A stretch of DNA of 43,730 nt, taken from the IMG/VR virus record IMGVR_UViG_646311924_000020; one strand, 5' to 3'. Source of the DNA: a virus. Taxonomy: Duplodnaviria > Heunggongvirae > Uroviricota > Caudoviricetes. This document shows, in pieces, positions 5,086 through 6,251 of the stretch (within the stretch, counting starts at the first letter, position 1; each line of letters opens with the position of its first letter). A program made the translations under genes and the position numbers. The notes beneath the pieces are model-generated. The model had not been told where the DNA came from, searched no databases, and saw only the letters and a list, made by a program, of their open reading frames with translations.

Positions 5086-6021
5086 TCAGTAGTTATGTAC
5101 TGAAGGAGGTAATTCTTTATTCTTAAGTCTCATCCATGCGGAAAGATTCGTTGGTCCGTCTGGCTCATTAATATCAACATCTCGTGTGTGGTTTATTAAA
5201 ACGTCTCTCGCCATTCCGATAACATACGAGAACTCATGACCGTAGTCGTAGCATCTGCCGGAATAGTTCGATTGAATTTGTTTTAGCGCCGGATACAGTT
5301 CGCGGAATAATGCCTGTGAGCGGTTGGCATAATCCCATAACCATACAAGGCTGTTTGCTTCTTTTGCAGAAAGCTCGTTGGTTTTCTTCTCTTGTTTGCC
5401 AATGAACTCACCTTCAAGTGGAACTCGAGCTGCAAGTGATAGTGCTTCGGTAAACTGCTCCTCACTGATTTCTTTGTACGAACATCCAAAATGGGATTTT
5501 AGTGACGACCACATGGTGATCATCGCCTTAGCCTGTTTTTCTTTTGGCAGAGACTGACCGCGACTCATGACGAGTTGTTTAATGGCTTCCTGCTGTTCAG
5601 TGGTGATTTTACCCGGCAACGCCTTTTTAGCTTTGCGTGGGTTAAATACATGACCTTTAGTCCAGTAGTCATGCAGCACGCTAAAGCATTCTTCCTGGTA
5701 CTGAATCAGTTTATCACGGATGTCAGCACGAACTTTCTCAGGGTTGATGCTGAACAGCCATCCATTTAACTTCTTCAAAGGAAGGCAGAGTAGCTTACGA
5801 AGCTTCCCATCAGCGGCAACCATGTTCATATGAACACAGTTGAATTTGCTAATCTGCTTCATGAGTTTTGTTTGCTGCGTTGACCAGCTCATTCCAAGGT
5901 TTTCAACGATTGGCTTCATCGCAACATATGCAACTCCGGCAGCCATGGCGGTGATAATTTGCTGACCGTTGAATGGTACATAAGAGGTGTTCACTGCTTC
6001 TAAAATTGCTATACTATTCAC
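5086..6021 (-). CDS. ant: antirepressor Ant (P22 Ant-like)
   Basis: Large ORF directly downstream of arc; synteny mnt-arc-ant as in P22 immI. The ORF-track ORF begins at a TTG (6087); I place the start at GTG 6021 preceded by GGAG, giving (M)[20 protein letters not shown] and a 68 nt arc-ant spacer. Confidence 0.8.
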
Positions 6022-6089
6022 GTTGGTTTTTCTCCACGGATTTACTGACAACCGAAGCCCTGACTGTTCCCGCAGTTGGGGCTTCAACT
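6022..6089 (+). ncRNA. candidate sar-like antisense RNA in the arc-ant spacer
   Basis: Plus-strand -10-like TATACT at 6010-6015 would start a transcript near 6022, antisense to the ant RBS; the spacer contains a nested hairpin (GAAGCCC...GGGCUUC) ending near the arc stop. Length and position match what I recall of P22 sar (about 68 nt). Inference only. Confidence 0.35.
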
Positions 6090-6251
6090 TTACGCGCCAA
6101 TGCGCCCTTCCTTCTTAAAGCTTTCCATTACTCTCTGATAAATCTCAGAGTTAACAGACCGACCATTCTCTTCCGCCACCTTGCGGACCAAATCCAATAC
6201 TTCTTTAGGCCACCGCAAATTGAACTGCGGCATCTTGCTCATTCCTTTCAT
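6090..6251 (-). CDS. arc: Arc repressor (ribbon-helix-helix)
   Basis: 53 aa [53 protein letters not shown], essentially the recalled P22 Arc. Start at the internal ATG 6251 of ORF-track ORF 6090-6314. Confidence 0.95.

Follow-up and report, generated by a model that had tools for sequence, protein, structure and literature searches.

Antisense control of the P22 antirepressor and related systems

Since 1987, the sar RNA of phage P22 has served as a textbook example of a cis-antisense regulator, and Liao 1987 and Schaefer & McClure 1997 are cited as the sources for its function. In the more recent literature, sar is described as an RNA of 68 or 69 nt which binds the ribosome-binding site of ant and blocks the synthesis of the antirepressor Ant post-transcriptionally (PMC7968456, PMC10732415, PMC3134472); in one of these accounts, the ribosome-binding site is a target on which the RNA acts in trans (PMC10732415). 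Reads from the sar strand have been detected in P22 infection (PMC13397905) and, since in P22 the immI region lies within the late operon, transcripts that start at the late promoter are likewise a target of sar (PMC12111858). An "ant moron" has also been described (PMC2629481). For the comparisons made below, the mapped transcript ends of P22 sar were taken from secondary sources and from database annotation.

Other small phage RNAs, namely c4 of P1/P7 and the CA RNA of N15, likewise restrain an antirepressor (PMC7313666, PMC10732415), but they bear no relation to sar in sequence or structure; in particular, c4 is a processed RNA acting on separate upstream targets, whereas sar is a perfectly complementary cis-antisense RNA lying over the ribosome-binding site of ant. 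The RNA-OUT of IS10 and the OOP RNA of lambda resemble sar in being short, hairpin-rich, cis-encoded antisense RNAs, but belong to other elements, have other targets and show no sequence relationship with it. RNA-OUT, according to a recent account, blocks ribosome binding at the initiation site of its target (PMC7968456), while OOP works via cleavage of cII by RNase III at the 3' end and not by occlusion of a ribosome-binding site (PMC3134472).

The immI region of the window

The window, i.e., the whole stretch of 43,730 nucleotides analysed here (IMG/VR record IMGVR_UViG_646311924_000020), contains a region organised as the immI region of P22. The relevant features are the following:

2970-4907, minus strand: tailspike gene (ORF list)
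5086..6021, minus strand: ant, antirepressor of 311 aa, target gene of sar (Pfam, ORF listing, PGAP)
5987..6015, plus strand: predicted promoter Psar, inside the first ant codons and opposite to ant; the homologous 29 bp are annotated in epsilon34
6022..6089, plus strand: sar RNA gene, 68 nt (RF00262 match, model positions 1-68)
6022..6049, plus strand: sar hairpin I (MFE and centroid fold, Rfam consensus structure)
6054..6085, plus strand: sar hairpin II, the terminator in the predicted fold
6090..6251, minus strand: arc, Arc repressor of 53 aa (Pfam; homologous CDS in P22, epsilon34 and RefSeq records)
6263..6319, both strands: overlapping divergent promoters Pant and Pmnt with the Arc/Mnt operators (promoter scan; homologues annotated in X01916 and epsilon34)
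6319..6291, minus strand: Pant, TTGACA-17-TATATT, convergent with Psar
6286-6314, plus strand: Pmnt, TTGAGA-17-TATCAT (promoter scan)
6342..6593, plus strand: mnt, Mnt repressor of 83 aa (Pfam Arc plus Repressor_Mnt)
6584-6601: terminator hairpin of mnt (terminator scan)

The region thus holds mnt, the divergent Pmnt/Pant pair with its operators and arc-ant, within the late operon and upstream of the tailspike gene; the order mnt, Pmnt/Pant, arc, ant, tailspike is that of the P22 and epsilon34 records, and late genes on the minus strand flank immI on both sides, as seen both in the ORF list and in the RefSeq match. Ant carries the Pfam domains P22_AR_N (8e-45) and P22_AR_C (5.6e-30), and Arc matches the Pfam family Arc at 9.8e-31. 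At 311 aa (936 nt including the stop), Ant is longer than its counterparts in P22, epsilon34 and E. coli FORC_031, all of which have 300 aa (903 nt); since the genes can be aligned at their 5' ends, the extra length lies towards the C-terminal or downstream end.

On the plus strand, opposite ant, stands the -10 hexamer TATACT (6010-6015) pointed out in the preliminary description of this DNA; it is preceded by TGc (6007-6009), so that the extended -10 reads TGcTATACT (6007-6015). The -35 element, GTGTTC (5987-5992), has two of the six consensus bases and is separated from the -10 by a 17-bp spacer. G6022, with which the Rfam sar match begins, lies 7 nt past the -10 and adjoins the ant initiation codon (GTG, 6021..6019, minus strand), at which that description had placed the start. 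The 68 nt that it had counted from there to the arc stop are also borne out: arc and ant are separated by precisely 68 nt (6022-6089); sar, the exact complement of this intercistronic region, fills it, and the arc stop codon TAA (6090-6092) adjoins the 3' end of sar. The CUCC of sar (6032-6035) complements the Shine-Dalgarno sequence of ant (GGAG, 6035..6032), and the P22 record marks the ribosome-binding site of ant at the homologous four nucleotides of the other strand. An own promoter for sar in the 5' part of ant, convergent with Pant, is therefore predicted from the sequence; the -10 of Psar (6010-6015, plus strand) faces that of Pant (6296..6291, minus strand) at a distance of about 270 bp.

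Neither signal was picked up by the generic scans: Psar was not listed by the sigma-70 consensus scan, because its -35 is poor, and the sar terminator was not listed by the simple terminator scan, because its U tract is short, the tail AACUUUAC having just three U. These misses reflect the criteria of the scans and were not counted against sar.

Identity of the RNA

The segment 6022-6089/6090 on the plus strand can be regarded with high confidence as the sar RNA gene of a P22-like (Lederbergvirus-type) prophage in E. coli. Indeed, the Rfam family sar (RF00262) matches 6022-6089 over its full length with 95.6 bits, the gathering score being 43 (E = 4.8e-21 in a 1-kb search and 2.1e-19 in the whole window), and this is the only match of the family in an Rfam scan of the whole window; a custom covariance model, built from the sar of close relatives, scores the same interval at 100.2 bits. 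The neighbours identified by Pfam are Arc, Ant and Mnt. The proposal that a "sar-like" antisense RNA is directed at the ribosome-binding site of ant can thus be made stronger, since alignment, family match and gene context together identify a sar orthologue. The RNA is by the same token already known, both as an Rfam family and as an identical 68-mer curated in epsilon34.

The closest annotated relative is epsilon34 (EU570103), whose locus coordinates plus 4399 give those of the window. All 68 nucleotides are identical to the stretch annotated there as sar, the 29 bp of Psar are identical base for base, and the gene neighbours are the same, including homologues of gene 15 and hkcB; the sole differences within 5960-6110 are at 6021 (T in epsilon34 vs C here) and at 5980, inside ant. 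The epsilon34 feature described as "promoter, located by similarity with P22 Psar" maps to window 5987-6015, while its sar misc_RNA corresponds to 6023-6090 and is shifted by one base in the 3' direction relative to the Rfam match; the 3' end of sar may accordingly be 6089 or 6090, and the length given for P22 sar in the literature is 68-69 nt (PMC7968456, PMC10732415, PMC3134472).

The resemblance to P22 sar in position and length, which had been claimed before any alignment, holds now that the alignment has been run: 66 of the 68 nucleotides are identical, and the two RNAs share the arc-ant intercistronic locus, the antisense orientation to ant, the length, the two hairpins and the -10 of Psar. 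There are two substitutions, at 6037 and 6069 (A in P22, C at both in the window), the former in the loop of hairpin I and the latter in that of hairpin II. Outside the RNA, the P22 locus differs in one base of Psar, at 5992 in the -35 region, and in having T at 6021 (ant ATG); the host of P22 is Salmonella rather than E. coli. More generally, a 501-bp core of immI has 55 matches among phage records, all of them P22-like, with 93.9% identity to P22 and 98.4% to epsilon34.

Other candidates were rejected. The family ctRNA_pGA1 (RF00236) stays at 22.7 bits, below its gathering score of 45 (E 0.059), with nothing but the generic terminator hairpin aligned, and a sub-threshold Rfam match to sroH was likewise dismissed as a generic hairpin. 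The custom model gave a weak match at 42299-42352 on the minus strand (E 0.1) and reverse-strand half-matches to the terminator hairpin, both taken as chance or palindrome effects. No Rfam match to c4 was found in the whole window.

Structure of the RNA

The sar sequence folds at -29.4 kcal/mol (z -5.04), and none of 200 shuffled sequences folds as well. The hairpin structure noticed in the preliminary description is thus real as far as folding can tell, except that it is not nested: two hairpins follow one another (6022-6049 and 6054-6085). Hairpin I has a 6-bp stem (6022-6027 with 6044-6049) and a 16-nt loop, in which the predicted fold displays the anti-Shine-Dalgarno CUCC (6032-6035); in hairpin II a 14-bp stem, three of whose pairs are G·U, closes a 4-nt loop (6068-6071), and the tail AACUU follows. 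The modelled RNA therefore has the make-up of sar, i.e., a transcript of 68-69 nt with two stem-loops, the 3' one being a putative terminator.

A hairpin at 6054-6085 is possible in the exact complement (minus strand) too, but the G·U pairs of hairpin II become C·A mismatches there, and the complement folds at only -20.1 kcal/mol (z -1.86); since it folds so much worse, the structure is a property of the sar strand.

Conservation and covariation

Close relatives were collected by scanning viral contigs with a pattern for the -10 of Psar and the 5' end of sar, which gave 99 contigs. The 99 segments extracted, those of the epsilon34 and P22 records among them, contain 25 distinct sar sequences, the 68-mer of the window being the commonest (39/99); substitutions are mostly in loops, linker and 3' tail, and 99.6% of cells are still paired. 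No compensatory changes were found among these 25 variants, because the divergence is too low and the search pattern itself fixed the first 14 nt.

A more diverse set of 29 loci was obtained by retrieval of Ant proteins, with one genome per species. Rfam sar exceeds its gathering score in three of them (Entomohabitans, Lonsdalea and Pluralibacter), and the custom model finds a sar-like RNA in nine, adding Citrobacter, Rosenbergiella, Pantoea, Morganella, Photorhabdus and Hafnia; all nine divergent RNAs end 0-1 base from the ant start, on the opposite strand. Together with the window and P22 these make eleven lineages, all enterobacterial, which were aligned with the covariance model, as MAFFT had mis-registered hairpin I. 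In this alignment 95.9% of cells are paired and 9 of the 20 pairs show compensatory changes (three of six in hairpin I, six of fourteen in hairpin II), counts which are biased towards the model's structure by an alignment fitted to it; in the controls, none of 500 shuffles reaches the observed values and slid alignments pair at 32-44%.

The promoter is similarly maintained: TGnTATACT, or a one-base variant of it, occurs at a constant distance from +1 in all eleven lineages, and in all of them the -10 is built on the rare Ile codon ATA of ant, an invariance which argues for selection on the promoter, beyond that on the protein alone.

Outside Enterobacterales (Pasteurellaceae, Neisseria, Desulfovibrio and others), neither Rfam nor the custom model detected sar at ant homologues. 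A different family, sRNA-Xcc1 (RF02221; 53-79 bits, gathering score 53), was observed directly upstream of non-Enterobacterales ant (P22_AR_N) homologues, about 55 nt away and on the coding strand, in nine loci from Pasteurellaceae, Neisseria, a Desulfovibrio and a MAG, one of which has two copies. The same RNA also stands upstream of an ORF6N-domain gene in a paper on APSE phages (PMC7313666), and may represent a different RNA-based control of antirepressor-like genes.

A further observation concerns the other side of sar. In about 40% of the loci sharing Psar/sar, arc is replaced by unrelated small genes, among them genes for zinc-ribbon-like proteins (CxxC...CxxC) and other ribbon-helix-helix proteins; in the arc-replaced loci, the sequences cease to be similar precisely where the sar terminator ends on its 3' side (window 6086-6092 region), and the TGA stop of the replacement gene sits within the 3' arm of the terminator hairpin. 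Judging from these sequence comparisons, sar and ant seem to move together as one module, with the mosaic joint at the sar terminator.

Proposed function and alternative explanations

Transcription of sar, its 5' and 3' ends and its repression of ant are proposed for this prophage by homology with P22. Transcription from Psar would start at G6022 and yield an untranslated RNA of about 68 nt, ending after the hairpin 6054-6085; as in P22, this RNA would pair with the ant leader, the Shine-Dalgarno GGAG included, as far as the base before the start codon, and pairing would occlude the ribosome-binding site and block Ant translation. By the same analogy, the block would cover both transcripts from Pant and those of the late operon reading through arc-ant to the tailspike gene, the P22 logic for late transcripts being applicable here because late genes on the minus strand lie on either side of immI. 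Ant left unblocked would inactivate a C2-type prophage repressor, and sar, with Arc and Mnt, would therefore limit antirepressor output; a LexA-family C2/CI-type repressor is encoded in the same prophage and is the likely target of Ant.

Control of ant might alternatively be exerted by Psar through transcriptional interference with the convergent Pant, either besides or instead of RNA-RNA pairing. The convergent geometry of the two promoters is what speaks for such a mechanism, and Liao et al. 1987 are said to have seen interference of Pant transcription with Psar in vitro; yet sar ends after 68 nt, short of Pant, so that polymerases from Psar cannot occlude Pant, and the compensatory changes in the RNA structure argue that the RNA product is the effector. 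As the P22 RNA is moreover reported to act in trans on the ribosome-binding site (PMC10732415), interference seems improbable, although it is the least improbable of the alternatives. A considerably smaller chance can be given to an orthologue by descent that is silent or decaying here and makes little or no RNA. The -35 of Psar, with its two matches out of six, has one fewer than in P22, the C at 6021 (position -1 of Psar) is rare, and copies of IS1203 interrupt the scaffold/coat region; the prophage may be defective on account of these insertions, and selection on sar may consequently be relaxed. The extended -10 is nevertheless intact, and an extended -10 can offset a poor -35; none of the ORFs of arc, ant and mnt is disrupted, each matching Pfam over its full length, and the immI core is one base away from that of a prophage with the ATG allele, so that there is no sign of general decay.

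Least credible, to the point of being nearly negligible, is the idea that the hairpin mainly serves the arc-ant mRNA on the minus strand, e.g., as an intercistronic stabiliser or processing site, with TATACT as a by-product of the codons and no antisense RNA at all. That the minus strand can form the hairpin at 6054-6085, and that the -10 overlaps conserved Ser-Ile-Ala codons of Ant, would fit it; against it, the plus strand folds far better (z -5.0 vs -1.9), with three G·U pairs available to that strand only, and Ile is encoded by the rare ATA in 11/11 lineages, as the -10 requires. Furthermore, the transcript of P22 sar, two loop positions apart from the present one, is experimentally established (PMC7968456, PMC13397905). 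An antisense RNA acting on the ant ribosome-binding site thus remains the preferred explanation.

The start-codon allele at position 6021

Base 6021 is C in the window vs T in 98 of the 99 related loci, and because of this T-to-C change the ant start is GTG and not ATG; the GTG start is also called by PGAP in the identical prophage. The same base is position -1 of Psar. C at 6021 recurs in one of the 99 other related loci and in none of the ten other divergent lineages, all of which have ATG; among the 269 E. coli genomes which carry the Psar/sar segment, the exact allele of the window is found in 9-10, mostly O111:H8. For the prophage of E. coli FORC_031, which has ATG, base 6021 is the sole difference from the window within the 501-bp core.

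Were this substitution functional, its effect could be less translation of Ant and/or a shift in the initiation of sar. That it is a natural regulatory allele of the sar/ant switch, resetting the ease with which the prophage escapes from repression, is put forward tentatively, as a possibility with the odds against it; the GTG-start allele is in this respect a natural variant for studying the tuning of Ant output.

The prophage and its annotation

The window is at least 99.9% identical to the P22-like prophage of E. coli O111:H8 strain 05-3004, located between sbcB and dacD, and its virion genes resemble those of CUS-3, phiv205-1 and Sf101. The Psar/sar segment is present in 269 of 5426 complete E. 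coli genomes (about 5%). The expectation that the RNA would be missed by ORF-based annotation proved correct for the E. coli prophage with 100% identity, whose RefSeq/PGAP records list only the three proteins at this locus; in the two records inspected (NZ_CP077600.1 and NZ_CP013190.1), whose prophages are identical or near-identical, arc, ant and mnt are annotated and a sar ncRNA is absent, although the Rfam score of sar is well above the gathering score. Screening such records with Rfam would add to them a functional regulator of antirepressor expression in prophages; the scientific weight of this sar is small, and its practical value lies in the annotation gap of RefSeq prophage records.

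Two inverted copies of IS1203 (IS3 family) are present at 15260-16569 and 18439-19748, each with an ALIL frameshift pseudoknot (16118-16234, minus strand, and 18774-18890, plus strand), and flank a 1.87-kb segment comprising the 3' part of the scaffold gene and the coat gene; as the scaffold gene is interrupted, the prophage is probably defective for virion production. In strain 05-3004 the IS1203 copies are elsewhere (in ninH and near int), at sites that are intact in the window.

At the left end of the window (1-2930), host dacD (approximately 1-1167) is followed by a gene of the acyltransferase family which adjoins the tailspike gene; the window stops just short of the integrase gene and hence spans nearly the whole prophage at sbcB/dacD. 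Two adjacent phage-borne tRNA genes, annotated as tRNA-Asn and tRNA-Thr in the matching RefSeq record, lie at 27878-28030 on the minus strand, between the Q antiterminator gene, which is upstream of them, and the lysis genes.
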